A stretch of DNA of 58,182 nt, filler included, from Dimargaris cristalligena (taxonomy: Eukaryota): the NCBI GenBank assembly GCA_003614675.1. It is 4 parts of 4 records of this genome, joined end to end, with 100 filler letters (N's around TTAATTAATTAA, not from the genome) between each part and the next. Parts side by side here need not be neighbours in the genome. Positions count along the whole stretch, not along the records: positions 29,183 to 43,638 come from ML002950.1; 3 more parts are not named here. One strand, 5' to 3'. Both the position numbers and the translations under genes were made by a program. Shown here piece by piece: positions 6,038-53,200 of this stretch. Position 1 is the stretch's first letter. The number at the start of each line of letters is the position of its first letter. The notes beneath the pieces were generated by a model, which was not told where the DNA came from, made no database searches, and was given only the letters and a program-made list of their open reading frames with translations.

Positions 6038-7491
6038 ATGAACGGCCTCCGCAGCTTAGGTAAGTCCGCATGCATCCTCTCTTGGCCGCGTTTCTAGATC
6101 TCTTTTGGGCCAGGTCGCTTATTCCAGCCATCTCCGGGCTTGGATTGGGCCCTCGCCTTATTCCCCCCTCCTGGGGTTTCCCCGTACCTATCCCGTTTCG
6201 TCCACCAGGCCTATTTATTCGACACACGCTCCGACTCCGACGCCCAATGGGTAGCCTGGGTTCCCTGTAACCATTGTGCCCCTAATCCTTCTAGTACTAA
6301 TGCCTCCGTATGCCTTCCCTTATCTCCCCCCTTTCTATACCCTCTTACCCAGGCGATTTAGATTCCAGTCGGGTGCTAAAGGTAACCGCCTGCGATGCCA
6401 AAACCGGCCAGAACTTCGAGCTTTCCTACACCAACTGCAAGAATGTGGGCAACGGTTCCTTCGGTGTCGTCTATCAGGCCCAGCTCGTGCCTAGCGGCGA
6501 GATGGTAGCCATCAAGAAGGTCTTGCAGGACAAGCGATTCAAGAACCGTGAATTGGCCGTAATGAAGGAGGTGCGTCACTTTAACATCGTGGAGCTCAAG
6601 GCCTACTTCTACGCCCAGGGAGAGAATAAGGACGACGTCTACCTTAATCTGGTTCTAGAGTACGTTCCGGAAACTGTATACCGGGTGACCCGCCAGTACT
6701 CCCGTCTAAAGCAGTCCGTGCCCATCTTCCACGTCAAGTTGTACATGTACCAACTTTTCCGCTCGCTGGCCTATATCCATTCGATTGGTGTCTGCCACCG
6801 TGATATCAAGCCCCAGAATCTGCTGTTGAACCCCGCCTCCGGTATCCTCAAACTCTGCGATTTCGGTAGTGCCAAAGTTCTGGTAGCGGGTGAGCCCAAC
6901 GTCTCCTACATTTGCTCCCGCTACTACCGGGCCCCTGAGTTAATATTTGGTGCGACCAACTACACCACCAGCATCGATATTTGGTCGTCTGGTTGTGTCA
7001 TGGCCGAGTTGATTCTGGGCCAGCCCCTATTTCCCGGCGAGAGCGGCATCGACCAGCTGGTCGAGATTATTAAGGTGCTGGGCACCCCCACCCGGGAACA
7101 GATTCGGAGTATGAATCCCAACTACCAAGACCACCGATTCCCTCATATCCGCCCCCACCCCTTCTCGCGCGTCTTCCGCAACCGGGCCCCGGCTGATGCT
7201 CTCGACTTATTGACTAAGTTACTGGACTACACGCCAACCTCCCGTTTGACGGCCGTGGAGGCTATGGTACACCCCTTCTTCGATGAATTGCGCCAGCCGG
7301 GCCTAGCGATGCCCAGTGGGGCCTCCGTACCTAAGCTGTTCGATTTCTCCGTTTCTGAGCTCTCTGTGCGACCCGATCTCAAACACCAGCTGGTGCCCCA
7401 GCACGCTGAGGCTGACTTGGCCGCCCGTGGAATTCACCTCAACTCCTTTGTTCCTCAGCCGCCTAGTCAAAGCCGACCGGCCCTCGACTAA
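6038..7491 (+). CDS. GSK3: Glycogen synthase kinase-3 (CMGC Ser/Thr kinase), 386 aa; exons 6038-6059 and 6353-7491
   Basis: GNGSFGVV glycine loop, [28 protein letters not shown] and the diagnostic [13 protein letters not shown] phase-1 intron at 6060-6352 (GTAAGT...TACTAAT...CAG) joins MNGLRSL to [11 protein letters not shown]; the ORF-track start at 6310 lies inside this intron. Confidence 0.96.
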
Positions 7492-14499: not shown

Positions 14500-14599
14500 N
14501 NNNNNNNNNNNNNNNNNNNNNNNNNNNNNNNNNNNNNNNNNNNTTAATTAATTAANNNNNNNNNNNNNNNNNNNNNNNNNNNNNNNNNNNNNNNNNNNN
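14500..14599. other. Artificial contig spacer (N44-TTAATTAATTAA-N44)
   Basis: Palindromic all-frame stop linker between N runs; identical at three positions. Confidence 0.98.
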
Positions 14600-20500: not shown

Positions 20501-23500
20501 CAGTGCTAACCCCAATACCGCCGATACAGAGTTCTCCAGGGACACCGACGGGAACTGGTTGGAGATGGTCATCGAGCACGTAGCCCTGGGTATTAGATAG
20601 AGGGCGGCCGATAGAAATGGGCTCATCCTCTTTAATTTGATCAGCGTGGGACGCAATGGTTATTTCAACAGGCCCATAAAAGTTGAATAGGCGGACATAT
20701 TTACACCACTGGTGAGCCACATTACCTGAAACGGCCTCTCCTCCTACGAGAACAGTTTTCAAGTTGGGGTAGTCCCCTGGGTCAATGTTCGCCAGCATGG
20801 AAGAAACAAATGTGCAAGTATTAACGCGGACCAACGTATCGGTAATATTACCATCCTGGAGGACCAGGGTGCCACCTGAGTGGAAGGCACCGAATATTCC
20901 GATTAGGCACCCATCAAAGGAAATATTCACGGTCTGTAATATGCGGCTATCCGAATCGAATTTACCTGCTTCGCAGCTACTTATAATGAAGTTAACTAAT
21001 GACTTATGTTGTACGGGCACCCCCTTCGGTCGACCAGTGGTACCCGAGGTGAATACGATGTAGACCAAGTCCGAAGGTATGCGTGTGGTGTCGGGATGAA
21101 ATGTATCAGTGGCAATTATATGGTGATTAATCGTATCGACAAGGCAGCACCGACTTTCTGGATCGTTTATACGTTCCTTAAATAGTTCAAAATACTCAGT
21201 AGTAGTTAGCAACCACGGTTCGTCTAACACACCAAAAGTGTATAGGAGGCGGTCAATAGCGTTGGACACGTCCATTGGAATGCATACACCACCAGCCAAT
21301 AAAGTGGCCAAATAACTGAAAATAAACTCGGCCGAAGTGGAGAAGAGTAGAGCGACATGGGAACCAGGTTTGAATCCGCGTTGCTGAAGGGTCAGGGCGA
21401 TACAGCATGCTCGATGGTACACCTCGGCATAGGTGAATTGTTGATTCGAGGTCTCAAGGGCAATGGCCTCAGGCCTGGAGGGAACGTGCTGGCTGAACAG
21501 CTGATAAGCCAGCCAATGCTGCTGAGGAGACTTGCGGATGGGCCCCTGTGTCCAGTCGTGTATGAGCCGGGCCTCGTCGGTGGGCAAAACCATAAGCTCA
21601 CGTAGGACAGACGTCGGGCGAGTGACCATCCTTGACAGGCAGTGGTCCATGAATTGAACCAAGTAGTGGGCATACGTAGCGTCACAATGGGCTGTTTTAA
21701 AGAGGAGACTACAATCCAGTGCTCCTCCATTATCAGTACAACTAACAGTGTAGGCATACTCGGTAAAATTCTGGCTATGGTGAAGCTTGAGGGCAATTTC
21801 TGGGTTAGTAGTGTTAATCATGGATGGTGGGATGTTGTCGTATACAATAAGGGAATCAAAGAGCTTGTCGTCTGGGTTAACTCGGCCCCATTTGCAGATA
21901 TCTAGGAGGTTGCATTGTTCAACCCCCGTTAGATCCCCGGACTGACGATGCAGATGTTGGACGAAATCCGCGACTGACGTATCAAACTCAAGAGACGCCC
22001 GGAACGGCAAGGTATTGATGCACATTCCTACCATACCATCAATACCAGCCACGGGGACATTGCGACCGGAAGTCAAGACCCCGAAAGTAACTTCGTCGGC
22101 CTCGTTGAGGTATCGCGCTAGGGTGAGGGCCCAGACACCACGCAGCAGGGAATTGAGAGTAATCTGCTGTTCTCGACAAAACGTGCTTAGGGTCGGGAGG
22201 GAAGTTGAAAAGGTGAATTCATGCGTATCATATTCGCATAAAGAATTCCCTTTTTTATGTGTGGCGAACTGGACAACGGGAGTAGGTTTGACCCCATCGA
22301 GATTACACTCCCAGAACTTCTGCAACTGAGGCTGACCAAGCGACTTCAGATGTTGTATGTACCCTGTAAATTGTGTTGCCAGAACGGGGAGAGCATCGTG
22401 ATACAAATCAACCAATTCGGTCAGGATGATATTCTGAGACCAAGCATCAAGTAAGGCGTGGTGAAAGGTAAGGAACCCCAGTGTTTGTTTAGAATCGGAG
22501 GCTGACGAGGTATAGAGGCTGATCCGCAATAGTGGTCCATTAAAGGCAAATCCGCGCTGGCGATCCGCAGAAAAATATTCCTTCTCGATTTGTGGCCAAT
22601 TATTGTGAGATGTCTCTGTATGGACCGACCATTCGATATCACAGCTATCAGTAACAACCTGAAGGAAGGTATGCTCGGGTATAGTGCGAGGTTGGATAAA
22701 TTTGGTTCGCAGAATGTCGTGCTGTTGGGCCATCTGATACCACGCCCGCTGGAGACGGTTAACGTCGAGTGGTCCCGAGATAACGAATGATTCCTGAACC
22801 ATGTACGCACTCGGATCCTTAATAGTACTGACCAGGAATCCTTGCTGTAAGCTGGAAACAGGCAGGATGTCGGTGATGTTTGTAGGGCCAATACTCAGCT
22901 GCGAGACGGCTTCTTGAAGCAATGTTTCCACAATCGTGGACGCTAAGTCACCATCGCCCACGAGAGAGAAGGGTTGGTAGCCAAGGAGTGAATAGGAGTC
23001 CTGTGACTGATTAACCGAACCTTGCTCGGCAACACAGTTAGCCAACTCGGCGAGATTAGAACACTTGAATATTTGGGTGATGGACACACGGACGCCGTAA
23101 TCTCGACATAGTGAAGAAAAGCGAATAGCTGAAATGGAGTCACCGCCCAATTGAAAAAACGAGTCGTACATATCAATGTCCTTAGTAGGAATTTCAAGGG
23201 TTTGGCTTAGGGCCTCCACAATGCGGGCTTCAGTCGTATTGCGGGGACTAGTGATCGAGCGGTCACTGGATATAGCGGTTTTTTGGGTAAGAAGGCTAAT
23301 CAAGGCACGCTTATCGGTCTTGCCGTTGGTGGTGGTGGGTAAATTTTTGAGGGCAAAAAGGGCATGGGGTATCATGTATGGAGGCAGATGGCTAGTCGAG
23401 TGGGACTTGAGGGGACCAACTGGTACTGATTCTGGACTAACGAAGCCGTAGAGTTTACCAGAATCAATGACTACCGCAGCGTTCTGGACTTCGGGGAAGC

Positions 23501-26500
23501 CAAGTAGTACTGTCTCAATTTCCTGGGGCTCAACCCGATGACCACGGATTTTGACCTGGTCGTCCCGACGGGCAAAGTATTCAACGGTACCATTAGGGAG
23601 CCAGCGCCCAGTGTCACCCGTGCGGTAAAGATAACCTTGGCCAGTAAAAGAATTGGGCAACAGACGCTCACGGGTAAGTTCGGGTAGATCGACATAGCCT
23701 CGGGTAACACAGATGCCACCCACATAAATTTCGCCGGGGACCCCAAGGGGCACAGGCCGCAAGTGGCGATCCAGAATGTAGCACTCGGTGTTTGGAACGG
23801 GGTGGCCGATTGTAACAGGTTCACCTGGCCGAATTTCTACAGCGTGGCAAACAAAACACTCCGTGGGGCCATACATATTAAACACGCGGCAGTAATAGGC
23901 CCAGCGTTCAGCCACTTGGCGGGGCAAGGCCTCTCCCGCGGCAATAATCATCTTAAGGCCAGGGTACTTGCTAGGATCCAAGGAAGCCAGTACAGTCGGA
24001 GTAGCCACCAAGGCATCCACCCGGGGCAGGGTATCTAGGATGTCGGTACGCAGGACAAGCGTAGCCCCTTTGCACAAACTAGTGAAGATCTCCAAAAAAG
24101 CGCAATCAAATGTCAGAGCCATATTTTGCATCAGGCGCAATCCAGCAGTAATACCAATGGTTGATTCATCTTGCTGGACAAAGTTGGCCATGACCCGGTG
24201 CTCCAACTGAACACCCTTGGGCTGACCCGTAGTCCCTGACGTATACAGGATGTGGGACAGGTCGGTGGGGCGAACATTGGGAAGAGTGGGCAATTCGGCA
24301 CAGGGAATGTTGGAGGGTAAGAGCCATGGGTCAATGGTCCGGAATTCCACATGAGGGAGGGCCTGCCGAATATCATCAAGTCGGACCTGGTCAGCCGTAT
24401 TAGTTAAAATTAACCGAATACCACAGTCATCCACCATATAACGTATACGGTCGCTGGGGAAAGCGGGGTCAATCGGTACAATAGAAGCGCCGGCCAAACC
24501 GACGCCCATGTAGGCTGCGATAGTGCTGGGAACCCGGTCGATAATGAGGCCAATGGGGGTTTCCCGTTTAATCCCTTGTAGCAGTAAGCGGTGGGCCAGG
24601 TTCGCAGACCGGGTATGTAGGTTTTCATAGGTCCATAGCAAGTCGCCAAACTCAACCGCGGTGGTATCTGGAACCGCCTGGGCCGTCCGAGTGAATAGTT
24701 CAGGTACACAGACCTCAAAACCAATGGCTAGGTGGGGGCTGGTAAACTGCTTGGTAACTAGAGCAGTTTCACTCGTGGAGAGCATTATAAGGTCTTCGGT
24801 GAATACATGCCCATCTGGATTAGTCAAGGCGGAGACCAGGCCAGAAAAGAGTGTGGTGAGGTGGCGCGACAAGGCCTCCATAGAGCACCGATCAAACACA
24901 GACGCACTCCAGTTCAAATTCGCCGTGAGTTGCCCGCCTTCCACTTGGACAATGACGGCCAGGGGGTAGTCAGTTGATTCCAAAAAGTTCGTGTCCGTAA
25001 ATGTAACTGAGTGTACCAGACTATCCAAGCCAGTGTCGGGGTAGTTTTCGTACACTAGCAATGTGTTGAACATATCACTTGGGCGAACCTCGGCATTAAC
25101 CCATTCATTGATCTTGGATAAATGCAAGTGCTCAAAGGGTACCATTTTATGGGAGCTTTGGTGTATCATCGTGACAAGTTCGATGACTGACATTTCTGGT
25201 TTTAACGGGACTCGGAAAGGCACAGTGTTGATGAAGCAGCCCAGATGAGACTCGATATCAGGAAGGGGTAGGGCACGCCCGGAAACGGTGTTACCAAATA
25301 CTACTTCGGTATGGTCAGTGTATCGACTTAGTAGGAGGGACCAGGCAGCCTTGATGAGAGTGTACGGCGTAATTCCTGTTTGGCGAGCCACTTTACTTAT
25401 GTGCCCGGCATCGGGGAACAACGTAAACAGAAAATCGGCTTTGCGAGAGTCAGGAGTGCTAGGTGGCTTTGGTAAGTACAACTCAGTGGGGTGTTCTACA
25501 CCTCGCAGATACTCTTGCCAGAACGACTCGGCCCCTGTGTTGTCTGAATTATGAATAAAGGACACGTAGTCATGGAACGAAGTGGTCGGGCTGGTTATTT
25601 GTTCAGGATTCCTTTGGAGATGGGCGCGAAGCTGGTCTAATAGAATTCCGAAGGACCAGCCATCAACGAGCGTATGATGGATGGTTAAGAGGTAGCGGAA
25701 CGAGTTGGGGGCCAGTTGCTTAACGTATATCCGCAGGAGCGGCTCATTCGGTTTGAACCCCTGGGCCAGGTTTACCTGTAGGAAGTCATTTTCACAAACA
25801 GCACCTAGATCCACCCACTCGTTAATCGAATGCCAACCTAACCGCGGCTCTCGGGAAACTACCTGAACACCCTGGCAGTGGGGATTACTCCAAGACGTTA
25901 AAAACACAGTACGCAGAATGGCATGTCGGCTGATTACGGCCCGAGTGGCCGTCTCAAGCTGGTCGACGGTTGATACTCCGGTAACGGTAAAAGCCAGCTG
26001 AACCAGGTATTCGGAGGGATCCTTGGCCGTGGCCGTCCACATGCCCTGTTGCATGGGCAACATGGGGTAGAGGTCTTCAACGTCGTATGGAGTAAGGCCA
26101 ATGGTGCCGAGCTCAGATTCAAGTTTGGCTAGATCCGGTAGAGTGGCCTGTAGGTCAGGGAAATCCGACGGGGTCCATAATGAGATTCTAGAGGACTGCT
26201 TGGTATCCTGCACCATACCGATAAGGGAGTCACGGAAGAAACCCAAGAGTGATTCAACTATGCCTGTTGCTATGACCTGGGGACAAAAGTGGACCATGAA
26301 CCTTATACCCTCGGGAGTTGGATAACCAATGATTTCCACTAATTGTGTACGGAGCTCGTCAGCATCACAAACCACCACATCAGAAGTTAGTTCAGGACGA
26401 GGGGACCATGGGGCACGGCCATGTTGGGTCAGTGTACTGTGGTCCACTGTGTGCCCTAGATAATTGAATACGACCTCCATCGGCAAGTAGGGCCGGTTTT

Positions 26501-29082
26501 TGGAGGCTACGGCCTCAGAGTGGTTTACTATTCTCTGGAGACCATACTGCAGCCCATTGGTGCCATTCGACGAACGGAGGGCCTGTTTGGCCAGTTTAAG
26601 GAAATCCGTGCTCGATGTGCTAGCGTCAGCCTGAACCTGGCAGGGTACTAGAGCGGTAAACCAGCCCACGGTTTGGCTGGGGTCAAGGCTGGTGTCCCAC
26701 GAATGACGACCATGGGATTCATTGAAAATCGTGATAGTTGACGCTTGGGTCAGAGAGTACAGGGCCCGGAATAGACCAGCAAACATCAGTTCGAGAGGCT
26801 GGATAAGTCGAGCATCAACCCCCAGAATGATATCTGAGTGGATTTTATCCAAGGTGATCGACAAACTCTCCGAATTACCTTGGGTATTATATGCCCAGGT
26901 ATCGGAACCAGTGAGGAGTAAAAACGATGGTATAGGAGCCGATGATTGTTTAGCCACAGTTGAGGATTCTTTAGCCCAATCAACCAATTCGGTCGCCCAA
27001 GTTGCAAAAGAGGTATGCTGTTCTATTGGCTGCTGGCCGTCTATAATACGGGCCAAGTCTTCCAATAAAATTGACCAGGACACTAGATCCACTGCTAGGT
27101 GATGGATTGTCAAGAATAGCAGCTGCCGGGGGGATGACTGGGATGGAACCATGGGGTAAGAGCCTGAATCATTTGGGATGTTGGCATTGCAATCTATGAC
27201 GGTAACGAGACCCGCAGCCAAGTGGTGGCCCTGGGAGATATCCATCGAAGACTGGATCGATATGAACTGACTGGGGCAGTCAGACAGAGGGACGATTGCT
27301 TCTACCAGGGGAATGGGTAGACTGGTAAATGGAGGTAGTATAGATTGGGTCCACTGGCTGGGGGAATTAGACTCGTTCTTGGTGAACTGACAGCGCAATA
27401 TGTCGTGGTGGTTGACTAAACGAAGAAGAGCGCTTTCAATCTGAAGAGCAGATAATGGTCGGGTCAATTCAAGGGCAAACGACTGGTTGAAGTGATTGGG
27501 GTTGCGCCAGGGATGGTCAAAGAACCATAGCTGAACTGGGGTGAGCGGGAAGGGGGTCTGGTATTGAATCGGCTGATGTAAACTATTATGACCTATGGTA
27601 GGGCTGATGGCTTTCATATTGCCAACCACATCGTACAATGTTTTTGACCCCAGTATCTTGGAGGTAGGTAGAGTAAACCCAAGTTGGCGACACTTCGACG
27701 AAACTTGAATAGCCAATATTGAGTCACCACCGAGTTTAACGAACGACAACTGCAAATTTATCTGATCGAGGGCTAGGCCAAGTACGCCAGTCAGTGCTTG
27801 GGTTAGGACTTCCGCTGCCTGGCTTGACGAGACTGGCGCCGAGTCGGATAATGGTACCTGCCTCCGCTGGGTAGCTAAATACTGGGTGAAATGTCCTAAA
27901 ATAAATTTGGAATCACACTTCCCGTTGGCGGTGAGGGGCACTGTGGGTAGACCCACAAAATAACTGGGTACCATATATGATGGCAAACTATCGGCTACGG
28001 CAATATGCAGTGCATCATAATTGGCGGCGGATTCAGGAAATACATAGCCGACCAAGAACTGGTCATGGATAAAGACGACGCAGTTCTGGACTCCGGGTTG
28101 ACGTATCAAGACGCTACGGATCTCATCTAATTCTATACGGAAGCCCCGGAGTTTAATCTGACTATCCATGCGCCCCAGGCATTCAACTTGACCGTTGATT
28201 AACCAGCGACCCAAATCACCGGTGCGGTAGAGTTTACCCCGGCCAGTGAAGGGGTTGTCAATAAACGTGGTGAGATTTAGATCGGGCCGGTTAATGTACC
28301 CGCAGCTGACCCCGACACCACCAATAAAGATTTCGCCAATGGCCCCGGTGGGTACCAGCTGCAGCTGATTATCCAGAATATAGCACTCGTAATTGGGAAT
28401 CGGAGGGCCAATGGGGATTGTACCAGTGGGTGGGACGCGGGTAAAATGGCTGATAATAGTAGTCTCGGTTGGCCCATAGCCATTGTAGATATCAGGAATG
28501 ATCGACCATTTGTCAACCAACTCGCGGCTGAGTGGCTCGCCCGCTAGGCATAGTTTTTTGAGATTGGGGTAGTCAGAGGGGTTCAGCCGGTTGATGACCG
28601 ACGGTACTAACCAGGTTTGATCTACGTGACGCAGAGTTTCAGGTAGGTTGTCCCCGTAGAACACCAGCGTCGACCCATTGCACAAAGGAAGGAGGGAGTT
28701 AAGGATAAACACGTCGAACCCTGGTGCAGTTCCCGCCATGACACGCTGACCGGATACTTGGAGGTCTTGGAAGACAGGATTGCCAACCTGGTGATCGAGG
28801 TTATTATGGGTGACCATCACCCCCTTGGGCAAACCGGTTGAGCCTGAAGTGAAAATAATGTAAGCCAGGTCGCCAGGGCGACTATTGTAAATGTCGGACC
28901 TGTTGCCAAAATCGCCATTACCCTCTAGAAAGTCAGACAGGACTAGGGTATTAGGCAACTGACTAGGCGAGCCAGTGGCGTTCAGTACAATCGTGCAACT
29001 AGCTGCCTCGATAATATACTTCTGGCGCTTCACCGGTAGCTTATAGTCTACGGGCACGTATACGGCCCCCACAACCCAAGCC
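14600..29082 (-). CDS. Multimodular nonribosomal peptide synthetase fragment, A1-T1-E1-C-A2-T2-C-A3-T3-E3-C-A4-T4-E4(partial), about 4,830 aa, no start or stop in the contig
   Basis: Four A domains ((Y/F)TSG(S/T)TGxPKG near 28850, 24240, 21045, 16480; YGP(T/V)E; YRTGD/YQSGD; G(F/H/Y)R(I/V)E). Four carrier motifs (GGDSI near 27725, 23140, 19950; GGNSL near 15385). Three C domains (HHxLxD(G/A)WS near 25670, 22450, 17890). E domains with HHLAVDLVSW/ESHGR/VGWFT (27100), HHFAVDFVSW/EGHGR/RTVGWFT (19385) and HHLVFDYLS (14815). The ORF-track stop at 14544 is the linker. Confidence 0.97.
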
Positions 29083-29182
29083 NNNNNNNNNNNNNNNNNN
29101 NNNNNNNNNNNNNNNNNNNNNNNNNNTTAATTAATTAANNNNNNNNNNNNNNNNNNNNNNNNNNNNNNNNNNNNNNNNNNNN
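29083..29182. other. Artificial contig spacer
   Basis: N run - TTAATTAATTAA - N run. Confidence 0.98.
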
Positions 29183-29546: not shown

Positions 29547-30008
29547 TTAGCGCGCCCGGCAGAGCAGCTCGCCGCCCACATGACGTCGTACGGCCTCGTT
29601 GATCTCGAGCACGCCGTAGCAGGTGGCCACCATGACAATCTCGCCGGGCAGCACGGGCTTCACGAGGCCCTGTCGCTTGCCGGCAATCAGGTTCTTGAGC
29701 ACGCTAAGCGTGCCGGTGATGCGACGCGACGGCTTGCTGATCACCTGCATCGACGTGAGCACCGGCTCGTTCTGGCGATACTTGAGCTCGAGCCAGTAGC
29801 GCCGCGACGCGATATTGAGGTTCGTCGTGGGCACGTACGCCTCGTCGGGTCCCTTGCGGTTACCGCGCGCCACCGACGCTATGAAGCCCTGCTCGTAGAG
29901 GACGCGCGCGAGGGCGAGGTTCATACGCGTGGCCGGCACCGAGATCCGCGGCAAACGCGACCTGAAGCTATTCTGGATATGCGAGCAGATATTGTGAATT
30001 TGCGGCAT
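29547..30008 (-). CDS. MRPS8: Nuclear-encoded mitochondrial ribosomal protein uS8m, 153 aa
   Basis: MPQIHNICSHIQN start, LYEQGFI, LELKY, ISKPSRR and GGELLCR are uS8 family motifs, with the fungal mitochondrial insertion (GPD...PTTNLNIASRR). The true start is probably the ATG at 30008. Confidence 0.92.
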   Translation of the reverse strand: MPQIHNICSHIQNSFRSRLPRISVPATRMNLALARVLYEQGFIASVARGNRKGPDEAYVPTTNLNIASRRYWLELKYRQNEPVLTSMQVISKPSRRITGTLSVLKNLIAGKRQGLVKPVLPGEIVMVATCYGVLEINEAVRRHVGGELLCRAR

Positions 30009-30276
30009 GTTGAGATTCCTCGCGTGCAATCACGACGCGCAACCCTTCTCTTGACCAACGCGGTGCTATATGCAGAGATAGATCGTGGCGGCGTATGTGC
30101 GTGAACGGGCGGGAGAGAAAAGACGACGCGGGAAGTAGAAAAGAAGAGAAACGATCGCGGGGTGGCGCGAACCAGCCAACTGATAACCAACCAGCCAAGC
30201 GTGTTCCTTCATCGCAACTGTTGCTGCGCTTGCTGCTGCTGTTGCTGCTGTTGCTCCCTTCTACTATTGCCACACG

Positions 30277-33092
<2,816 letters not shown>

Positions 33093-34541
33093 CGGGCCGC
33101 TACTGCTGCGCACAACTGCTACTAGAATCGATTAAAGCATTAATAACACATAGCTTTATTGTCAAATAATGTACATTGTCATCAAGCAGAGATGTCACCA
33201 TTGTCAATGCCGATAGAAGAGAACAAACAGACCGCCCGCCCTTGGAGCGATGCGCCAGTCCAGTGGCACGAGCGATCCCGTCTCCAAGCGCATGTGGCAG
33301 ATGAGGCGGAGCAATGCCGCGTGGCCATGCGCACAGTGAGGCATCCTCCTCGCGACGACGACACTGGCATGGCCATGATGCGCGGAGAACGGGCTCCTAA
33401 TACCTGCTAGTAAGTGCAGATATTCATCATGGCCACTGGTCGCGTCTCTGCAGACATGGCCAGCACGAGCAGAGCACCTGCTAAGCCCATTCTCGCCACT
33501 CATAGCCGCCACCCGATGCGCCCATCATCGGCGAGAATCGCCACACGGCCACCAGACGAGCAACATCCCATTTGCGTTGCCTTCCCCCCTCACACACAAC
33601 AGCATGCCCCCCACGCAGCACATCCGCCCATGTAGGGCGACGCGCACACCAAGCAGTCCTGCACAGCGCCCATGTCGTCGAGGTGTCTTTGAGTGTGGTA
33701 TGCAGTTTAGCGACCGGTCAAAGACTCTGCACGCTATTACAGAGCCTAATACCGCTGGCGGGCCACACACTCATCGGTATGCGGCGCCACCATCGGCCAG
33801 CTATAGGCACCGTAGAAACACCGGTCATGCCATGCACCGCACGACGGGCACGACGAAATAGCCGCGCAAGCATCGCAGTGGACAGGCCGCCAGCATGTCG
33901 CCAGTCCATCGGCACCATCTGCCACCACGGATGTTGGCACGCCATGCCACTTGAACGCCTGCCACGCAGACAGCCATCCCAAAGCACGCAATTTCCCCTA
34001 TGCGGCCGGTAGACAGCTGCCGCCAACAGCCGTCCAAGGGGGGCAGTAGCGCACCAGCATCCATGGACGCGACCGGCACGACAGCAGCAGCGCTATCCAC
34101 GCTTTGTTTGCGCGGTTGGATTAGGGTTAAGTTGAAGACGTGCGTCTTCAAAGACAGACATGGACTAGCGTGCAGGACGCTCAAGGTCAACAGGAGCGGA
34201 CGCACCGCGCAGGAAGCCGCAAATGCCAAAGACGAGCGGGTTTGCTTCTAAGAGCACACGCGTGCCATACAATACGCAGATGGTATGGCACCGACCGTAA
34301 TGGTGGTTGATTTACCCAGCCAGCGCTGGCGAACGCGTCATTCGACAAACACGCACGCACATACACGAGTAACTGGGAGAGAAGAGGCATAGAGAGCAGA
34401 TGTGCGCGAACGCGCCAGGAAGAAAGCTCTATACGAATAGGGCGGAGGCAGTTTTTGTTTGCAAGTTTTGCGGCGAATAAACACATCGACAGGCAATGCA
34501 GCAGGTAGAGTATGGTCAACATCATCACACATGCATGCGTG

Positions 34542-34547
34542 TTTATT
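34542..34547 (-). terminator. AATAAA polyadenylation signal of the micro-exon gene
   Basis: Plus-strand TTTATT about 235 nt downstream of the TAA at 34781. Confidence 0.5.
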
Positions 34548-34609
34548 CATATGGTGTATATGGTCAAAGATGGACGGGGCACCACATACAGCATTGCATT
34601 CATGTAATG

Positions 34610-34633
34610 GATGATGATGATGATGATGATGAT
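34610..34633. repeat. (GAT)8 microsatellite
   Basis: Read directly. Confidence 0.85.
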
Positions 34634-34780
34634 GGAGAAGTAGATGGTAGACTTGCACCGAGTGATGATGGTGGTGGCAGCTTGAATGGCATGGACAGCA
34701 ACGAAGGGACTTGCTTGCTCCAATGGACCACGATATCATTGTCGTCTCGGATGTCTATCCTGTCTACTTGATGCCTTGGT

Positions 34781-36322
34781 TTAATCGAAAACTAATTGCA
34801 CATGGTTAGACTTGCTTACATCATCATTCTATGGTTACTTACGGCCTATCATTGCATCATCGACCGATAAATGGGTAGGTGATTGCATTGTTAGCTTGTT
34901 GGATAATCTGCGCATATTAGCAGGCTTACATTCTATCCACAGCATTATCATATAATGAGCAATATAGAATGGAATGGTATATGCTGGCTTACTGGCTATT
35001 CATACAATACGGCCACATATTGGCGAATGTCCCATCACGGTCAGTGCATCAAGTGGCACATGGCCAGCATAATGACTTACTGACTATTCACGGCAATGGC
35101 CGCATACAGATCGAATATTGCACTCCAGTCAGCATATCGGACAAGGCGCCCCATGTAGTAACTTACGGCCTGCTCGCATGATAATCGCGCATACAGCAGA
35201 TGGTCAGTCAGCTGCATTATTGCACTGAGCCATACTGCTAGTGCATCTGCTTACATTCTTTCCACGGCAATCAATGGTTACATAGTTCATCTCGATTAGT
35301 GCATCGCATGGAATGGTATGTGCCATTGCTTACGAGCTATTCGCAAAGCAATCGAATATAAAATGAGCATTACATGGCTATCAGCACGATGAACGAAATG
35401 GCGTGTGCAGCAACTTACAGTCTATTCGCATAGTAGTCATGCGTGGATTGGGCATCGTGCGCCAGTCAGTTCATGCATCGGATGCAATGATCTATTGTTG
35501 GCTTACCATTTTCTCCTACATCATCATATGCATGGCATCGCAGTCAGTACGCTGCACACGGCAATGTGTACATCGACTTACCGCCTATTTGCAATGTGGA
35601 TGCATGAAATGATATTCCAGCATGATTAGCACGCATCAAATGGGACTACTGAACGCTTGCTTACAGTCTATTACCACGTGTTCCCCTACAGTTAGTGTGC
35701 TGCACAGAGTAAACAAACGAAGTCTTACCATCTATTGCCAGGGATTGAGGATGGTCAGTACAATGAATAGAATGCTACATGGATAGTTACTTACTCACTG
35801 CATCCATAGGATAATCACACAGGATCAGTGGACTGTATGGAGTGATCTATGTGGCCACTTACTGCCTGCTCGTCAAGCACAATGTGATCAGTAGATTGAG
35901 TGGTATGGCATGTACAGCTACTTACAAACTGTTCATATAGAGTAGCCACACATGGAGTAATCGACTGTTATTGATGCATCCATTGTGCTTGCATGTGCAA
36001 TGGTTTACCATCTATTCACATGGATTGATTAGTATTGCATCATATAAACTTTATGCAGCTAGCCTACCAACTATTCGCAAACGATTACGTATGTATTGAA
36101 TATTCCATCATAGTCAGCACGCTGGTCAGCACGATGTTGTTGCGGGCTTACGATCTAGCACAATAAAAAAGCATATAATGATCAGGCATTCCATCATCGC
36201 TGCTCCTATTATGTTGACATACCAACACGGCGGACCAAGGCAGGCTTCGCTTCGACGGTGGCCAGGCTAGCAACGGCGACAACGACGACGGCGACAATGG
36301 CAATGGCAGTGGAGACCTTCAT
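34781..36322 (-). CDS. Micro-exon gene for a 56-aa secreted Cys-hairpin prepropeptide; 20 exons in transcript order: 36322-36223, 36154-36152, 36070-36068, 36011-36009, 35928-35926, 35865-35863, 35797-35795, 35731-35729, 35667-35665, 35584-35582, 35515-35507, 35421-35419, 35336-35334, 35257-35255, 35169-35167, 35083-35081, 34995-34993, 34932-34930, 34845-34843, 34791-34781
   Basis: Nineteen consecutive 51-85 nt GT-AG introns (16 with GTAAG donors, most with a CTRAY branch site). Joining the exons gives a stop-free frame: MKVSTAIAIVAVVVVAVASLATVEAKPALVRRVDLDVCMNDCGENDSQCLTKCLFD*. Confidence 0.92.
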
Positions 36323-36489
36323 GGTGACAGTAGGATGGCAGACTAGTGGACTGGACAAGCAGGCAGGATATAGAGTATCAACAATAGTGGTACTAGCAGT
36401 AGACAGCAGACAGTAGACAGTAGACAGTAGTGAGCAGAGAGGGCGAGTGAGTATGAGGATGGCTGGTTGCCGTGACAAATGGTGGTTTA

Positions 36490-36495
36490 TTTATA
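36490..36495 (-). promoter_or_regulatory. TATA box of the micro-exon gene
   Basis: Minus-strand GATATAAATAAA about 170 nt upstream of the ATG at 36322. Confidence 0.55.
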
Positions 36496-38350
36496 TCTGG
36501 AAGCGAGACAGTAGAATAATTTGCGCAACATGTCTGAGGAGGAGAGGACATGGATGACGAATGCGAGTCAGACAGGTGTTCGGCATGAATGAAGTGGGCG
36601 GACTGGTCTTGCATGAAGAAGCAAGTCCCATCTGCTTGCGGGCAAGACATCCATCATGCAGCGATGGACCAGTCAGCATACTTGCACATGGCAGTATCGT
36701 CCATTGTACGCGTCAGCATCATTCTGGTGAGTGGGCACCAATCAGGCTGCATCTATTACCCAATGTGTCTGCTGTGTCGCCCATATGACCTAACACCATG
36801 CCAACTGCTGTGCGAGCGCAGTCTAGCTTGCCTCCGACTGAATACTTGCTGGCGAGCACAGCAATGGGCATGAAGCTGGCGGATCAGTCAAGCTGCCCTT
36901 GTATGGCATTGCCGCATAGGAACACATCATCATCACCATCATGCTGCCCAGCATCCATTCGACTGCACGTATACGCACATTCCATGATGATGATGATCCA
37001 GCACATTCTGGCTGACTGGTGCATGCATAGAGCATTGTCCAGCAATGGATGGTGACAAGCACAGGCAAGAAGCAGAAGCAGAAGCAGCGGCCAATGGAAT
37101 ACTAATCCATGCCTGTGTATGTGCATTCAAGCTGAGGCAGCGTCGGCACGAATGGCCATAGAAGAAAGAGACAGCAAGCGTGGAGCGAGAGTATGGAAAA
37201 CAAGGTCACCGCGGCAGCTGACGAGGAAGGATGCCGATGGCGGACGACGTTTGCACCAATGGCGCGCCGTGACCGTTAGAGTGCCCGAGTAGCAATGACG
37301 ACATGTACCAATCATTGCATAGCCGCCAACTAGCTTGTCCCACCGCCATTTGAGATGCATGACAGGCCAAGCCCGTTCGGCATTCGATGGTAGGCAATCC
37401 GATGTAAAAGGGGAAGAGGAAAGGAGGCATTGCCACAGCAGACGGCCTTCCTGCGGCCTTCCGGCAACGACAACAACAGCGAGCATGCATTGCACTGTAA
37501 TCCACCATCGATGGTAGCACTAGTGGCAGCAGTAGCTCCGCCATTGAAAACCTGTTCGAACGGCGTGCCATGTCGTCCATGACATACGTCGCTGGCTGCC
37601 ATGACGCCACCATGCCATAGAGCCGGCCGTCAATCCGTGTTCGTCGCCGAGAAGGCCGCTCGCCCGTCTGCACTGCTGCCAATCACCCATGCCATGCCAT
37701 GCCATGCAGCGACCGTCATCGACGAGGCGTTGGCTGCATCAGGCAGTGCCAAACAGATGTTGGTGCATCCGCTGCTGTCCTCGCTCTCTGCGTGGCATAT
37801 GACCACCCTCCATCGAGCATCATGTAAGCGTGATTCGTCAAACTTGAAACGCGTCTTCCGCACACCCGCACATCCACATCCACATCCACACACACACGCC
37901 CTTCGCGGAGGGAGGCTGCATCTCCGTTGCTTGGGCGCCCGAATTCACATGGACACGACGGCCTTATGGCCGGTTCCGCCCAAGCTTCCAGGAGAAGCGC
38001 CTGTTCTGTTCGCCTAATTTGGAACCATTTGAAGAATGGTGCTGCTGCTGCTGCTGCTGCCGTTGCTGCTCTGGCATGACTTGTGACCGCTTTTAACGCC
38101 ACGCACCGCTCGTCGTTATTTAACGGCCACCACACGCACGCTATCCGTTTCCGTAGCATTGCCATCGCGTTTCGTATCACATTTGCCGCTGCTGTTGCCG
38201 TTTTGTTTTATTGTTATTGTTATCCTCCTTCTTGCTAGCCGTGCCATTGACGACAACAACAGTCTTGTTCCATAGTTTTGTCTGGTCCCGACATTCATCG
38301 CGCCTACATCCTAGCTGGCACATTTGCAGCATTAGTCATTGCCTACTAGC

Positions 38351-43638: not shown

Positions 43639-43738
43639 NNNNNNNNNNNNNNNNNNNNNNNNNNNNNNNNNNNNNNNNNNNNTTAATTAATTAANNNNNN
43701 NNNNNNNNNNNNNNNNNNNNNNNNNNNNNNNNNNNNNN
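43639..43738. other. Artificial contig spacer
   Basis: N run - TTAATTAATTAA - N run. Confidence 0.98.
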
Positions 43739-47267: not shown

Positions 47268-50200
47268 TCAGTCATCATTTTTCCTCTGGGTCAATTCTCG
47301 TACGGCCTCCTCTAATTTCCGGTACAGCCAACGGCGACTCGACGCTTCGGGAATTGGGATAAACGGCCCCGGCTCATTACCACGCAAGGTCAGCGAAATG
47401 CCCGTGGCTTCGAGATTAATACTCTGTAAAGCGGACAGGGAAATCACCCACTCCACACTTAAACTGCGGCTCTTGATGAGCATGAGTTTAGAGTAGGTGA
47501 CCAAAGCTACCATTTCGGATCCCCGGAGTTCCAAATGGGCCAGGTACGTCTCGTAGAAGTAGTCGCCGTTATCGATTTGCTTGAGCCAGAATTGGCCGAG
47601 GGCGTCGCGTTGGTTGTACGGGTGGAGGATGCCATCGCGGGCTACGAACCGGGGGAGGCGGACGCGGTCCAAATCGACGGCATTGAATACTGTCGTGGTA
47701 TTCTTGATGCCTTCCGTAACGTGACTGGCCAGGTCAAACACCCCCACCATGGGTTTGGTGACCACTCCCACCAAACCCTTACCCACGCCCTTGAAGAAGC
47801 CGCCCAAGCCTTCCTTTTCGGCGCCTTGGATGGGCTGCATAACGACACCCGTGATGCCGCTGGCTACACTCGATGCAAAGGACGTGGCCCCCTGACTGAC
47901 CCCGTAGAGGGCGTGTCGGGGTCGGTTCCGGGTCCGTGAGATACGTCGCCGGTCTTGGTAACTCTTGTCCAAAGTCGCAACGGACAGTCCCTTACTCACG
48001 CTCTCCGCAAATTTGGAGAAGCTGTCCGAAAAGCCGTACACGGTCTTACTAAACAGTGAGTACGTACCACGGGCCAGACCGATACCGAAATCCTGCGGCC
48101 GGTCACTCATGACGAAGCCGTGGTAAGGTTCGTAGAAGAAATCAGCCACACCGGAACTGATGTTGTTGAAGAGACCGACGGGGTTACCAATCACGTCCGC
48201 CGAACCCAGTACCTTATGGATTTGGTAGAGGGCCTCCTGGCCGTAGTGCTTGGTAAACCGGTCCAATAAAATCGTCATACTGGCGCGCACGTTTTCAATG
48301 ACCAGGGCATTCAGTTTCACGGGGGCGTCGTTCACGTTACCAATAGCCATGGTAATTGCATTACCAATGACCATCAACGGGTTCTGCGAGTTGGTGGGGT
48401 CCATTTCCTGGTTGATCCGTTGGGTTCGCACAAACGACAGGTTGAATTTGAGGGGCTGAATATGCAATACTTCGAAGTACAATTGCATTTCATCCTGCGG
48501 GACCGGTGGTTCGGGCAGTCGGTGGACCGTTTCACAGTAGAGTCGGTCCTCCTCGGTTTTCAGCTGTTCGTCACTCTTTTCCGCGCCGAATTTAGCAAAC
48601 TCGAGGAGGGCGAACAGGAAGTCTTCGTCCATTTCGAGTGACATTTCCTGTAGCAGAATGGAAAAGTACCGGATATAGTTCACACCGTACGACTCATCCT
48701 TGGCCCGCACCAGGGCGACGTGTAAAGTTGGCCGAATTTCCGTGTCCTGGCCCGTCTTGGGGATAATGGTGGGGTAGAGCAAAATCTCATTAAGCCCGCC
48801 GTAGAGTTGGTTATCGATTTGGACCCACTCGATCATCCAGTTAAGCGACTGGTTACAGGTGGAGTCGGTATATTTGAATTCAATCCCCCGGAACGTAGTG
48901 TACATGAGCTCCTGCAGTTTGGCGTTGATGAGGGAGAGGCCAATTCCCTCCAGCCGCAGCCGGAAAGTCATGGTCGTGACATTGCTCACGTCTACGATTT
49001 CGAAGGCCTCCCGCAACGTGTCCTTTCGTTGCAATTTGGGTTTGAAAATACTCTTGTTCTGGTTGTACGAGGTCAGACGCAGGACCTGGGTGGCGTGGTC
49101 GGCGATGACGTCCACGGACATGGTGTTGGGGTAGGCGGCCGAAGAGGCAAACTTAAAGGGAATTAGGGTACCAATCTGCTGGATATCCACGTGTCGCTCG
49201 TGACCCTTGACGTTCAAGACCAGTTGCTTATCTCGCATACTGGGGTAATCCCAGGAATACGACATGGTTTTACCAGCCGGCAGGCGGTACTTCTTAACCA
49301 AGGTACCTGAAAGATCTGCGCCGGCACCGGCGGCCTCCCGGAGACTGGGGTCGTACTGGTACAGCGTCACATCCACCCCCGAGGCATTCTCGATACGGTA
49401 GGGCCACTCCCCCTCGACTTGGGAGAAGAGGATGAAGATACAGGCGCCCTCCAGCACGACATCCACCCGCACCAGAATCCGTTCCAGGCGGGTGGTGTTT
49501 AGCTTCACGAACAATTTGCCCACCTCGTCAATGAGGAACGGGGCCGACCAGTAGTTATTGAGGCCAGGGAAATTGATGGTGAGTTGCTTCTCCCGGATCT
49601 GATGGATGAAATGCAGGGGGGCCCGCTGGCCAGCGGCCAGGCGGGTACTGCGGGGAGTGCCCACTTCCCGGAAGTTGAGGTCCTGCTTGAGGTTGTTTTT
49701 CAGCAAGTACCGTGGGGTGAATGAAACCACCTTGGTACGACTGAACTTACCCGGACCCGGTTCAACGCTAATACCGACGTGAATCGTACTGGCGGTGGTG
49801 CTGCCGAGGGAGGGGATCACCACTTCGGTTAGACTACCCACGGCATCGAAACTCAGGGGTTTACTCCAGTCTCCTCCGGAGAATTTGATGAGACAGCGGT
49901 TACGGGGTTCGTAGGAATCGTAGGAGAACATAAAGGGTTTGGGGTTGTCGCCCCCTGGGATACCCTCCCCGCTCTGGCCGGCTACTACCGACGCGCTTTT
50001 AATCAATGACTTAGATTTAAGCAGCATCGCCAACCCGGTCTGGTTAATCATCACGTAGGGGGCGTAGATGGATACAATATGAGCACCACCCGTGTCGGGG
50101 ATCGGTCGTCGGTCCAGCCGTAGGGGCAATTCGCGCCGTTGGTTGTCAATGAGAGAGATTTGGTCATCCACGTCCATGTCCTGGTCCGAACTAGCGTCGA

Positions 50201-53200
50201 TCACCGCGAAGCGACTGCGTTTATACGGGGTGCCGGGAACTTCCAGGGCCATGAGTAGTAGGTGTCCGGGGCGGACGACGTGGACTGGGGCAATGGCCCC
50301 CCGGCTTAATTTACTCTTCCATTCGCGGTTAATGACCTTATCTACTACGGTATATATAATATCGTACGGGAGCAGATTCTCGATTTCAATGGGGGCACTC
50401 AGTCGGACATTCATGAAGGGGTACTGGTACGACGACACGTCTTTGCGTTTGTAGCGGCCGTGGACCTGGAGGACAAAGTCAGGGGTCTGGCGCTGCTCGG
50501 CCGGGCAAATCACGTTCGTAGGCGGGGTCTTGGTCAAAAAGTCCACCCAGTAAATGTGGGTACTACTCCAACTGTAGTGGAACTGGTCAACGGGCCGTAC
50601 TTTAACCGCGTAAATATGGCACTGCAGGACGGGGACGGGGAAGTCCTCACCGGGGGGTACCACTTGCGGGGTACTCATAAACTGGCCCCGATGATCGACC
50701 ATGACCATCTCCAGCGGCAGCAGGGTGCGGTTCTCGAACACCAATGACGATCGCAATACCACCTGCTTGACGTTATTCAGAAGCCGCACATCCACGGCTA
50801 GACGGTGCGATATGTCGTCGAGCTTGGGCCGCAGGCGGTAGAGTTTGCTACTCTCCCGATCCACCGGGATGTCCTTGAGGCTCTCCAGCTGTACCTGGGT
50901 GAATTGCAGCCCGATTTTGTTGCGTGCGGCCACTACCACGTCCCGGGACCGGTGCCAGTTGCCGAACCGCCACGGTAGTGTTTCCTGGTTCTTGATGAGC
51001 CGCACCGACGTTTGGTTTTTGTGGGAGTTGGGGAGTTCGTTCCACACGTAGAGGTCAGTACCTGTTTGGTTTTTAATCTGGTAGGGTACGTGTTCCACGC
51101 GTGTACGGTACAGGTAGTTGTCCTTGTCGCGGGTCAGCTCAGACACCGAGTTGAGCATGGTCTCAATGAAGGCGTGCGAGATATTGATATCCAGCTTATG
51201 CTTGGCCTGAATATCGATCCGGGTGGTGTTATGCGGATCAGACACGGTTTGCAAATGGACCCCGAACTGCCAGGGCTCCACCAGAGGTTCCCAATGGGAA
51301 CTTTGCAGGTTATAGTAATTGGCGTGCATACGTAGGTTGACGTCGATCTTGATCTGAGTTGACCAGTCGGTAAGGTTCACCGAAAAGGCGTCAAAGGTAA
51401 CGTCGACCACCGGAATATCAATCTTATTACCAATGAGGACGACCTGGGCCCCTTGGAAGGCCAGTTTCATAATCTCGCGGGATACGGTCACCTTTTTGAC
51501 CGCGGCGGGTAGGCGGGTGGGGGTTGATTTGACCGGTAAGGGATCGGCGAGCGCACCGGTGTCAACCACGGGGCGACCCAGATTGGTGGATGAAGAGGAT
51601 GATGACGCAGCGTGACTGTCGGATTGGGACTGGGACTGGGTCCGCGACAAGGGACCAGCATCGCCAATTTCGTACGCGGCGTGGGCCGAGGTTGGGGAAA
51701 GCATACCGGGGCTAGTGGCCTGGAAGCTTTCATTAACCCCCTCCGACGGGCTACTACGTGTACCGCCGGCGGTTGCGGTAGGCGCCGCCGCACTTCCCTC
51801 GGACAATTGGGTGGCCGTGTTGGCGATTTCGAGTAGGAGGGAAATGTCCTCGTAGGATACCCGAAGGACCAGAGGTTTAATATCCACGATAATATTGGTA
51901 AGCATGTGGTCGGCCCGGGTCGACCCGTTGTGCATACTCAGCACCACGTCGAAGGGGTCAATAAAGCTGACGCTGGTATCGGCGCGCCGATCCATGCGAC
52001 ACAGCGACATTTCGATTTTTTCCATAGTTAAGGCAAAGATACCCTGTTGCGCCACAACTACCTGTTCCATCGACAGGACCACCGCCTCTGACCCAGGGTT
52101 TGTGGCATCGGCCAGTAGGAGAACCTCGGGCTGGACAATATTGATTCGGAAGGCAAACTGCGTGGCGGGGGTGTTTTCGGCCGGGGGGTCCGAAGCTGAT
52201 CCTCCGCGCCCTGCCGCAGGACGTCGGGCTCCCGCCGGTTTAGGCCGCGGGGACGCGGCCTGGCCGTGGGCCGAGTAGTTATGCTGCACTGCGCTGGATT
52301 GGATCGCGAGACCCACGTTGGCCGGGGCCTTGTAGGGGATCTGGGCAGGGTCAGATCCACTCACCCCGGTTCCGGCCGAGGACTGGTCCGATTGGGAGTC
52401 CGAGCCGGAACCGGACGGGGGTTGGTTGAATGCGCTCAAAAAGTAGTCCTTCATGGCAAACATATGATTGAGGTCTAAAATCACCCGGGGATGGTCGACG
52501 GTGGCCATGAGAATGGTATCCTCACCCGGCCGAGAGTCAACCCGGGCCAGAAGTTGGGGACCGGAGTGGTCCGCCACGGGTAAAATATCCCGGAATTTGC
52601 TTCGGCTATTTGGGCGAGTGTCCTGGATGGCGAACGAAAACACTTGGACTTCCGACTCGGACACCTGGTTACTCTTGATCATGTGCTTCAGGACCAGATT
52701 CTCGCTACAGAACCGCGAGAAGGACGCCTCCGACAGACCCCGACGGCACTGTGTACCATCACCGTGAAAGATTTCCAGATCAATGGTCTCCAGATTAAAT
52801 ACCAAGTCCAAGGTGGTATAGGTGGGTCCCTCCTGAATGGTACCGGCGGTAGAGTTGGCGGGGGGTGGCCCACTAGCAGTTGTAGTAGGATGACTGGGAG
52901 CCTCTGACGTAAACGCATGGTGGTCAGGAAAGGCGAAGGAGTCTACCGAGTGGCGGCTTTCATTGTCCGATTCCTCACCTGGGCGACGGCGGCGACCCAC
53001 TACGCTACCCACACTATCCAAATCCGAAGTACTCAGTTGGGAGAGGGAATGGGACAGGGCATCCGTGGTAGCCGCTGCGTCCGAGCTTGCCGTAAAGGTA
53101 CGCGATAAAATGTTGCCCAGATTCAGCAGGGACTGGTACTGCCGTTCGGTGAGTTTCATGTGGACATCGGACAATTTGGCGGTGATTTCAACCTCAGGCC

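Follow-up and report, generated by a model that had tools for sequence, protein, structure and literature searches.

A candidate micro-exon gene of Dimargaris cristalligena, predicted to encode a small acidic secreted peptide with four cysteines

Can a fungal gene be assembled largely from exons that are a single codon long, and, if so, what would such a gene make? The question is raised by a 1.54-kb locus on the minus strand of a 58,182-nucleotide stretch of Dimargaris cristalligena DNA (GCA_003614675.1), hereafter the window, which consists of four joined parts from four records; the locus lies in the part that comes from ML002950.1 (29,183 to 43,638). Between an ATG at 36322 and a stop at 34781, the DNA reads as 20 exons, 17 of which are exactly 3 nt long. 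With moderate confidence, we take the locus to be a real, mis-annotated micro-exon gene, whose product would be spliced, proteolytically processed, disulfide-bonded and secreted as an acidic peptide of 24 residues. The gene and its family are the more remarkable part of the case. If it is spliced as modelled, this is to our knowledge the most extreme micro-exon gene known, with 17 exons of 3 nt in 1.5 kb.

When the 20 exons are joined by coordinate with a script, they yield a coding sequence (CDS) of 171 nt, that is, 56 residues and a stop codon, and the result reproduces letter for letter both the 56-residue precursor and the 24-residue mature peptide claimed by an initial annotation of this DNA. 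The interval singled out by that annotation runs from 36247, the first base of Lys26, where the segment KPALVRR starts, to 34781, the last base of the TAA stop. The coding part of exon 1 (36223..36322, 100 nt; all gene coordinates are for the minus strand) covers Met1 to Val33 and the first base of codon 34. After these 100 coding nucleotides the frame meets GTATGT, and from there GT..AG stretches alternate with three-base exons down to 34792, forming an array of 19 introns and 18 internal exons (34792..36222). The coding part of the last exon (34781..34791, 11 nt) completes one codon, adds two more and ends with the stop (34781-34783). All introns are in phase 1 and are 51-85 nt long: introns 1-5 occupy 36155-36222, 36071-36151, 36012-36067, 35929-36008 and 35866-35925; introns 6-10, 35798-35862, 35732-35794, 35668-35728, 35585-35664 and 35516-35581; introns 11-15, 35422-35506, 35337-35418, 35258-35333, 35170-35254 and 35084-35166; and introns 16-19, 34996-35080, 34933-34992, 34846-34929 and 34792-34842.

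Each internal exon but one is 3 nt long, and each of the four cysteine codons of the mature peptide is divided between two of them. Micro-exons 2 (36152..36154), 3 (36068..36070) and 4 (36009..36011) precede the first cysteine, Cys-6, whose T is the last base of micro-exon 5 (35926..35928) and whose GC lies in micro-exon 6 (35863..35865). Micro-exons 7 (35795..35797) and 8 (35729..35731) are followed by micro-exon 9 (35665..35667), which ends with the T of the Cys-10 codon, and by micro-exon 10 (35582..35584), which supplies its GC. Exon 11 (35507..35515), the sole internal exon longer than 3 nt, has 9 nt and encodes most of the Gly-Glu-Asn between the second and third cysteines, so that its position in the predicted loop is as the initial annotation had it. 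Then come micro-exons 12 (35419..35421) and 13 (35334..35336), micro-exons 14 (35255..35257) and 15 (35167..35169), with the T and the GC of the Cys-17 codon, micro-exons 16 (35081..35083) and 17 (34993..34995), and micro-exons 18 (34930..34932) and 19 (34843..34845), with the T and the GC of the Cys-21 codon.

The splice signals of the array are strong and uniform at the donor side, where 16 of the 19 introns start with GTAAG and the rest with GTATG, GTAGG and GTAAA. At the acceptor side, 14 introns end in TAG, four in CAG and one in AAG, and a branch-type motif, CT[AG]A[CT], is present in 17 of the 19. Introns 5 and 14 end in GAGCAG (35866-35871 and 35170-35175), directly before the GC of the Cys-6 and Cys-17 codons in micro-exons 6 and 15. 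Use of the upstream AG in this hexamer would add 3 nt and replace the cysteine by Ser-Gly; at both acceptors CAG is the conventional choice, and it is the choice that gives the cysteines. In intron 19, the shortest at 51 nt, 9 nt separate an internal CATAG from another GTAAGC downstream of it, an arrangement that resembles a collapsed extra unit; if those 9 nt were used as an exon, they would introduce a stop.

The layout of the array is far beyond chance. The pattern [A/C/T]AG-NNN-GT[A/G]AG, which describes a 3-nt exon between an acceptor and a donor, occurs 15 times in the 1.54-kb region, against a mean of 0.146 and a maximum of 2 in 2000 shuffles. The remaining ~56 kb of the window hold two matches on the gene strand, at 12246 and 13959, each isolated, and four on the other strand. 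Within the region, GTAAG alone is found 17 times on the gene strand and not once on the opposite strand. A chain search, in which short introns were linked as a graph through exons of 1-30 nt under strict donor rules, returned a longest micro-exon chain of 15 introns in the gene, against five or fewer elsewhere, and no second micro-exon array was found in the window. The order of the exons matters as well. When the 18 internal exons were permuted in 200,000 trials, an open frame together with the arrangement C-x3-C-x(4-20)-C-x3-C appeared in about 1 in 100,000, and an open frame that held four cysteines or more in 0.13%; base shuffles produced the cysteine arrangement in none of 200,000. An open frame by itself is weak evidence, because 41% of the exon-order permutations remain open.

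The introns of the array are related to one another. Aligned with MAFFT, they follow a common plan of GTAAG[C/T], about 30 nt, CTGAC or CTAAC, and a variable tail, which often ends in TGCGAATAG and is deleted in the short introns. Their mean pairwise alignment score is 7.57, compared with 1.23 when the interiors are shuffled. Profiles built with one intron left out recovered nine of the 19 at E<=0.01, and four of the 19 were not found at all. Tandem Repeats Finder did not report the intron-plus-exon unit as an array, a result in keeping with copies that are old and diverged. Most economically, they would have arisen by repeated tandem duplication of one intron together with three bases of exon. 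Outside the array, the window contains no detectable intron copies (best E 0.34 with the profile of all 19 introns and 0.088 with the leave-one-out profiles). Introner-like elements, known from fungi and algae, are families of near-identical introns dispersed through unrelated genes. The present case resembles them in that many introns of one gene are mutual copies, but differs in that these copies stand in tandem within a single gene in the 58-kb window searched; a dispersed introner family was rejected, since the profile has no copies elsewhere in the window.

How, then, does this locus appear in public databases? The modelled spliced product is absent from protein databases. The best match of the 33-residue exon-1 product is RKP35139.1, a hypothetical protein of 198 residues from D. 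cristalligena, which maps to the same locus in five pieces on the minus strand (36871-36761, 36346-36224, 35918-35793, 34933-34820 and 34761-34603) and adds an upstream exon. This model translates sequence of introns 5/6, of intron 18 and of the 3′ untranslated region (UTR), and its junctions differ from those of the array model. Because its pieces contain translated intron and 3′ UTR, RKP35139.1 is very probably a read-through artefact of gene prediction, caused by the 3-nt exons. A contiguous read-through of exon 1, 44 residues long, was also compared with 5.8 billion proteins of 24-77 residues and gave two word candidates, neither of which scored.

Relatives of the first exon do exist. Compared with 1.84 billion representatives, the 33-residue exon-1 product matched five proteins at E<=0.001, and a further search added two more. 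Six relatives (P0122-P0127) are short proteins labelled Syncephalis pseudoplumigaleata, encoded on contigs of 2.1-3.7 kb; the four from the first search are RKP23980.1, RKP22321.1, RKP22639.1 and RKP23822.1. With numbering from the Met that all share, their first 32 residues agree with the window gene at 26-30 positions, EA[K/Q]PAL is invariant, and the dibasic Arg-Arg is present in six of the seven family members, the seventh having Ser-Arg. Beyond the Arg-Arg position all seven sequences diverge completely and resemble translated intron. In P0123 and P0126, 21 residues match the translation of intron 5 and the next micro-exon at 76-81% (E about 1e-6), and P0127 shows a weaker match of 47% over 32 residues (E 0.011); the GAGCAG-GC junction reads D-E-Q-A in the read-through of P0123 and P0126 and H-E-Q-A in that of P0127. 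As judged from these sequences, other genes share the signal/pro exon, the Arg-Arg and no fewer than one intron, its donor and GAGCAG acceptor included. Such sharing supports a functional, conserved architecture and the reading of KPALVRR as a pro-segment before a dibasic site, which the initial annotation had put forward from the one gene.

Syncephalis belongs to another subphylum and comes from the same single-cell study as Dimargaris, with a different host. Possible explanations of the sharing are a truly shared family, gene transfer between mycoparasites and carry-over between samples.

The predicted precursor has a pre-pro-mature layout, again as foreseen. Its signal peptide would comprise residues 1-25 (36248..36322) and end in VEA. 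The features are those of rules of thumb rather than of a trained predictor: a lysine at position 2, and a hydrophobic core of 19 residues with a mean Kyte-Doolittle value of 2.67. Small residues at -3 and -1 are compatible with cuts after residue 18, 21 or 25, so the exact cleavage point is not fixed, and VEA is plausible without being unique. The putative pro-segment KPALVRR (36227..36247) ends with Arg-Arg, precursor residues 31-32, which form a candidate Kex2-type site between the pro-region and the mature peptide. Kex2-processed repeat proteins are a different case, as there is one dibasic site here and one mature peptide.

The mature 24-mer carries five Asp, one Glu, one Lys and no Arg in a recount that agrees with the composition first given. 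Six of its 24 residues are acidic, its net charge at pH 7 is -5.3 and its reduced mass is 2681.0, which would fall to about 2677 on the loss of four H in two disulfides. There are four cysteines and no others, at positions 6, 10, 17 and 21, which gives C-x3-C-x6-C-x3-C. So strong a negative charge speaks against a lytic peptide of the cationic kind, and on this point we agree with the initial annotation.

To which class might such a peptide belong? The 4C motif of alpha-hairpinins is C-x3-C-x(4-20)-C-x3-C, and n = 6 is described as its commonest spacing, in 106 of 869 predicted plant 4C peptides, although the authors caution that peptides of other classes widely carry the motif as well (PMC11591084). 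The Dimargaris peptide, with x3/x6/x3 and no extra cysteine, falls within this definition. It shares with plant alpha-hairpinins (EcAMP1, VhTI, BWI-2c) the motif, with n = 6, and, as predicted here, the release of a small peptide from a signal-peptide precursor by proteolysis. However, the plant peptides come from multi-module cassettes or vicilin N-termini, whereas here a single module is found in a 56-residue precursor from a fungus, and characterised members are described as acting through basic and aromatic residues or a loop Arg, in contrast to the charge of -5.3 here. Since the family is defined by motif and fold and not by descent, and since the motif is widespread, the peptide is not filed as an alpha-hairpinin; of the likeness originally drawn, the cysteine motif stands, but the plant origin and the multi-module or vicilin-type precursor have no counterpart. 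Trypsin inhibitors of the hairpinin type need a P1 Arg in the loop that joins the second cysteine to the third. The six loop residues here include neither Arg nor Lys, which argues against such an inhibitor and leaves the protease-inhibitor option of the initial annotation disfavoured in that form.

A second comparison is with the kappa-KTx, or CS-alpha/alpha, toxins of scorpions (HelaTx1, kappa-hefutoxin), which have the twin C-x3-C in peptides of the same size class (about 22-28 residues). HelaTx1 has 25 residues in a helix-loop-helix with disulfides Cys2-Cys19 and Cys6-Cys15 and the pattern C-x3-C-x8-C-x3-C; its block of Kv1 channels needs a basic surface of broad extent, and a dyad of Lys and an aromatic residue is used by other members (PMC7262511). 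Motif and size fit the Dimargaris peptide, but the spacing is 6 instead of 8, and the toxins' basic surface contrasts with a strongly acidic peptide that has one Lys and one Phe, a pair that leaves a dyad formally possible. That no such basic surface is present speaks against a channel blocker of the kappa-KTx type, and this second option of the initial annotation is likewise disfavoured. Charge alone is not decisive, as acidic scorpion K-channel toxins exist (PMC3325286). The twin C-x3-C is also found in small mitochondrial Tim proteins; these were rejected as candidates, as they have no signal peptide and a longer spacer.

Of the functions first suggested, an effector fits the biology of the organism. 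The Dimargaritales are described as mycoparasites (PMC9866270), and D. cristalligena appears in a list of obligate mycoparasites kept in dual culture (PMC6784888). With low confidence, we suggest a binding-type extracellular effector or ligand at the interface between parasite and host.

The chain of events that we favour would begin with transcription of the locus and with intron definition, in which each intron, being short and having a strong GTAAG donor, would be recognised as a unit. Removal of all 19 introns, with every micro-exon included, would give the 56-residue pre-pro-peptide. This would enter the endoplasmic reticulum, where signal peptidase would cut near VEA, and a Kex2-type convertase would then cut after Arg-Arg and free the acidic 24-mer. 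Oxidation would produce two disulfides, likeliest between the first and fourth and between the second and third cysteines, which would staple a short helix-turn-helix. Once secreted at the parasite-host interface, the peptide would bind a target, in the manner of an effector or ligand and without membrane lysis. As to the fold, we lean to the stapled helix-turn-helix by analogy, because two pairs of cysteines at i and i+4 are its signature and because a solved 25-mer, C-x3-C-x8-C-x3-C, adopts this fold with this pairing.

Several observations weigh against this chain. Splice sites only 3 nt apart should be expected to clash sterically. The branch-type motif is missing from two of the 19 introns, and in the 10 longest (76-85 nt) the sole such motif lies 38-45 nt before the acceptor, which is unusually far. 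The sole verified intron of the window, in a GSK3-type kinase gene, is about 290 nt long and rich in C and T before its acceptor, a feature that the array introns do not have. The public model of the locus uses other junctions. We found no precedent in the literature for 17 exons of 3 nt; nor did the literature searched contain a description of 3-nt exon arrays in fungi or in Dimargaris, although subscription journals were mostly uncovered and this is not proof. One 2024 paper states that, up to then, no functional microexons had been reported from filamentous fungi (PMC11121469). For the later steps, the spacing of 6 between the second and third cysteines is shorter than in solved examples (8 in HelaTx1, 12-13 in solved plant alpha-hairpinins), the hydrophobic moments of the two proposed helices lent no support to amphipathicity (P 0.24-0.81 against shuffles), and the first five mature residues alternate in a strand-like manner. 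Kex2 enzymes are generally said to favour Lys-Arg above Arg-Arg.

In the 10 longest introns the branch-type motif also lies at a nearly constant distance of about 35-40 nt from the donor, with no pyrimidine-rich tract after it. This spacing may bear on how spliceosomal complexes fit beside 3-nt exons.

The points on the fold lead to the best of the alternatives, which we regard as a serious but clearly lesser possibility: that the peptide is made and adopts another fold, with different cysteine pairing, a partly reduced, metal-binding state involving Cys and Asp/Glu, or a largely disordered chain. The missing amphipathicity signal, the strand-like N-terminal alternation and the short spacing, 6 against 8-13 in solved hairpins, all speak for it, as does the acidity of a quarter of the residues. 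However, cysteines at i and i+4 on two segments are the signature of a stapled pair of helices, and the 4C motif definition admits spacings down to 4. The Gly after the second cysteine and the Asn-Asp-Ser before the third are, in addition, residues common at helix ends and helix starts, which counts weakly against another fold as a matter of general knowledge.

The next alternative accepts the gene and disputes the product: exon skipping would generate a mixture of shorter peptides, and the 24-mer would not be the main or the only product. We consider this unlikely. It draws on the symmetry of the internal exons (phase 1-1), by which skips, or removal of the whole array, stay in frame. Skipping of any one internal exon keeps the frame open in 16 of 18 cases, the two GAGCAG acceptors offer a 3-nt alternative, and, on general grounds, steric crowding at 3-nt exons should favour skipping. 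In the extreme, the 100 nt of exon 1 joined to the last exon are in frame and would place a tetrapeptide behind Arg-Arg. On the other hand, the lone skips of micro-exons 10 and 13 each lead to a stop, and the usual error under intron definition is, again as general knowledge, retention rather than skipping. Moreover, the four cysteines with their symmetric spacing occur only in the product that includes every exon, and they are very unlikely to have come about by chance.

Still less likely is the view of the array as a tandem repeat, in decay or without function, that follows a relic first exon, the frame being a coincidence or the locus a pseudogene. Duplication of a unit could produce splice-like periodicity without function, and the introns are indeed mutual copies; many reordered frames stay open, as noted above, and no annotated protein matches the spliced product. 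Against a decaying repeat, GT..AG is kept in all 19 introns, and GTAAG in 16, although the interiors have fallen to roughly half identity, and the cysteine pattern arises in only about one in 100,000 permutations. Among six other genes there is conservation of exon 1, of Arg-Arg and of an intron, splice motifs included. Some 165 nt upstream of the start codon, the locus also has a TATA-like element, TATAAATAAA (36486..36495, minus strand, read as a motif), and the start context of the ATG at 36322 is good, with A at -3 and an in-frame TAG eight codons upstream.

The remaining alternative, a host gene for intron-derived small RNAs (snoRNA, mirtron or other) with an incidental coding frame, can draw on the many similar short introns in one transcript and on ATGATG- and CTGA-like strings in some of them, but it is very improbable: an Rfam scan of 33500-37500 gave nine matches at E<=10, all of them well short of the gathering score of their family, the only one within the array being a 15-bit chance match on the other strand; folding of the 19 introns against 200 shuffles each gave z from -1.94 to +2.10, no meaningful excess stability, with at least 11 of the 200 shuffles as stable every time; and the signal peptide, the Arg-Arg and the cysteine pattern would be left unexplained. 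On the Rfam and folding results, a structured-RNA or small-RNA host role for the introns was rejected.

If the favoured chain is right, how unusual is the gene among known systems? Its closest analogue at the level of gene structure is the micro-exon genes (MEGs) that occur in parasitic flatworms, Schistosoma among them, and that are reported to have exons of 3-81 bp and introns of up to 5 kb (PMC10526429). As in MEGs, tandem micro-exons, their lengths multiples of three, hold most of the CDS between longer first and last exons, and these micro-exons are symmetric, so that any subset is in frame. Alike, too, are the origin of the product in a parasite, the longer first exon and the existence of a multi-gene family; MEG products are secreted and have their signal peptide in that exon, and both are predicted here. 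The two differ in intron length (up to 5 kb in MEGs, 51-85 nt here) and in lineage, flatworm and fungus, which makes the Dimargaris gene an analogue and not a member. They differ further in that 17 of the 18 internal exons are at the 3-nt minimum here and the introns are recognisable mutual copies; a relation in sequence is not to be expected. MEGs are documented to vary in their isoforms; for the present gene, 16 of the 18 single skips leave the frame open in silico.

The family as a whole calls to mind another system. In the toxin superfamilies of cone snails, a conserved signal and pro region precedes a hypervariable mature peptide, and the genes have few, long introns. Similarly, the signal/pro exon is near-invariant in the seven genes considered here, and the sequence after Arg-Arg differs in each. 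The few long introns of cone-snail genes set them apart, and the parts after Arg-Arg in the relatives are known here only from models that read through introns.

These comparisons allow a bolder idea, which we hold to be improbable though somewhat less so than a mixture of skipped products: that each residue of the effector is placed on its own symmetric 3-nt exon, as a cassette of one codon, and that the arrangement serves to let the mature peptide diversify rapidly while the signal/pro exon before it stays invariant. If so, unequal crossover, gene conversion (within the gene or between family members) and exon skipping would all stay in frame, and each such event would add, remove or swap single residues. 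The family would then be common, by descent or transfer, to two unrelated lineages that parasitise Mucorales, Dimargaris and Syncephalis. Independently of this idea, introns that are copies of one another around single-codon exons suggest a way in which a peptide could grow or vary one residue at a time.

The locus bears on other questions too. If spliced as modelled, it would lend itself naturally to studies of how the spliceosome handles splice sites 3 nt apart. For annotation, it indicates that a whole class of small secreted peptides can be missed or garbled by the standard gene callers used for fungi; in the public model of this locus, introns are translated. For the biology of mycoparasites, it offers a concrete candidate effector, a 24-mer of defined sequence that is open to synthesis, and also a family whose hallmark is the near-invariant signal/pro exon.

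The peptide gene sits among genes of housekeeping type. Ribosomal protein S8 (29547-30029), a DEAD-box helicase (around 31.2-31.7 kb) and a TLC-domain gene (38.6-39.4 kb) lie in the same part of the window. A Pfam scan of 32 open reading frames (ORFs) of 29.1-43.7 kb with curated cut-offs placed only ribosomal protein S8 and the DEAD-box helicase above threshold, with zf-CCHC and Pinin scoring below, and no protease, oxidase or enzyme of the type that acts on RiPPs (peptides that are ribosomally synthesised and then post-translationally modified) was recognised among these ORFs. Elsewhere in the window, a minus-strand ORF of 4842 residues (14544-29072) encodes a four-module nonribosomal peptide synthetase (NRPS) with seven condensation, four adenylation and four carrier stretches. 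The filler between the joined parts (14500-14599, 29083-29182 and 43639-43738) consists of three pairs of 44-base N runs, with 12 bases between the two runs of a pair, and two of these pairs bracket the NRPS frame. No link between this NRPS and the peptide is drawn, as it lies about 5.7 kb off along the joined window, behind housekeeping genes.

Minor features flank the coding region. An AATAAA (34542..34547, minus strand) about 235 nt downstream of the stop is, as a motif, a candidate polyadenylation signal. The presumed 5′ leader or promoter contains a 7-nt tandem repeat, CAGTAGA on the plus strand (4.9 copies, 36397-36438), and the presumed 3′ UTR a (GAT)8 microsatellite (34610-34634). Further away, the ORF of the GSK3-type kinase (6310-7488) is 100% identical to a protein named for D. 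cristalligena and 91% identical to a protein of Dispira simplex, and a VPS13 ORF of 3383 residues occupies 47268-57419 on the minus strand. The reading frames of the NRPS (14.5 kb) and of VPS13 (10 kb) are uninterrupted, in contrast to the 19 introns in the 1.5 kb of the peptide gene.

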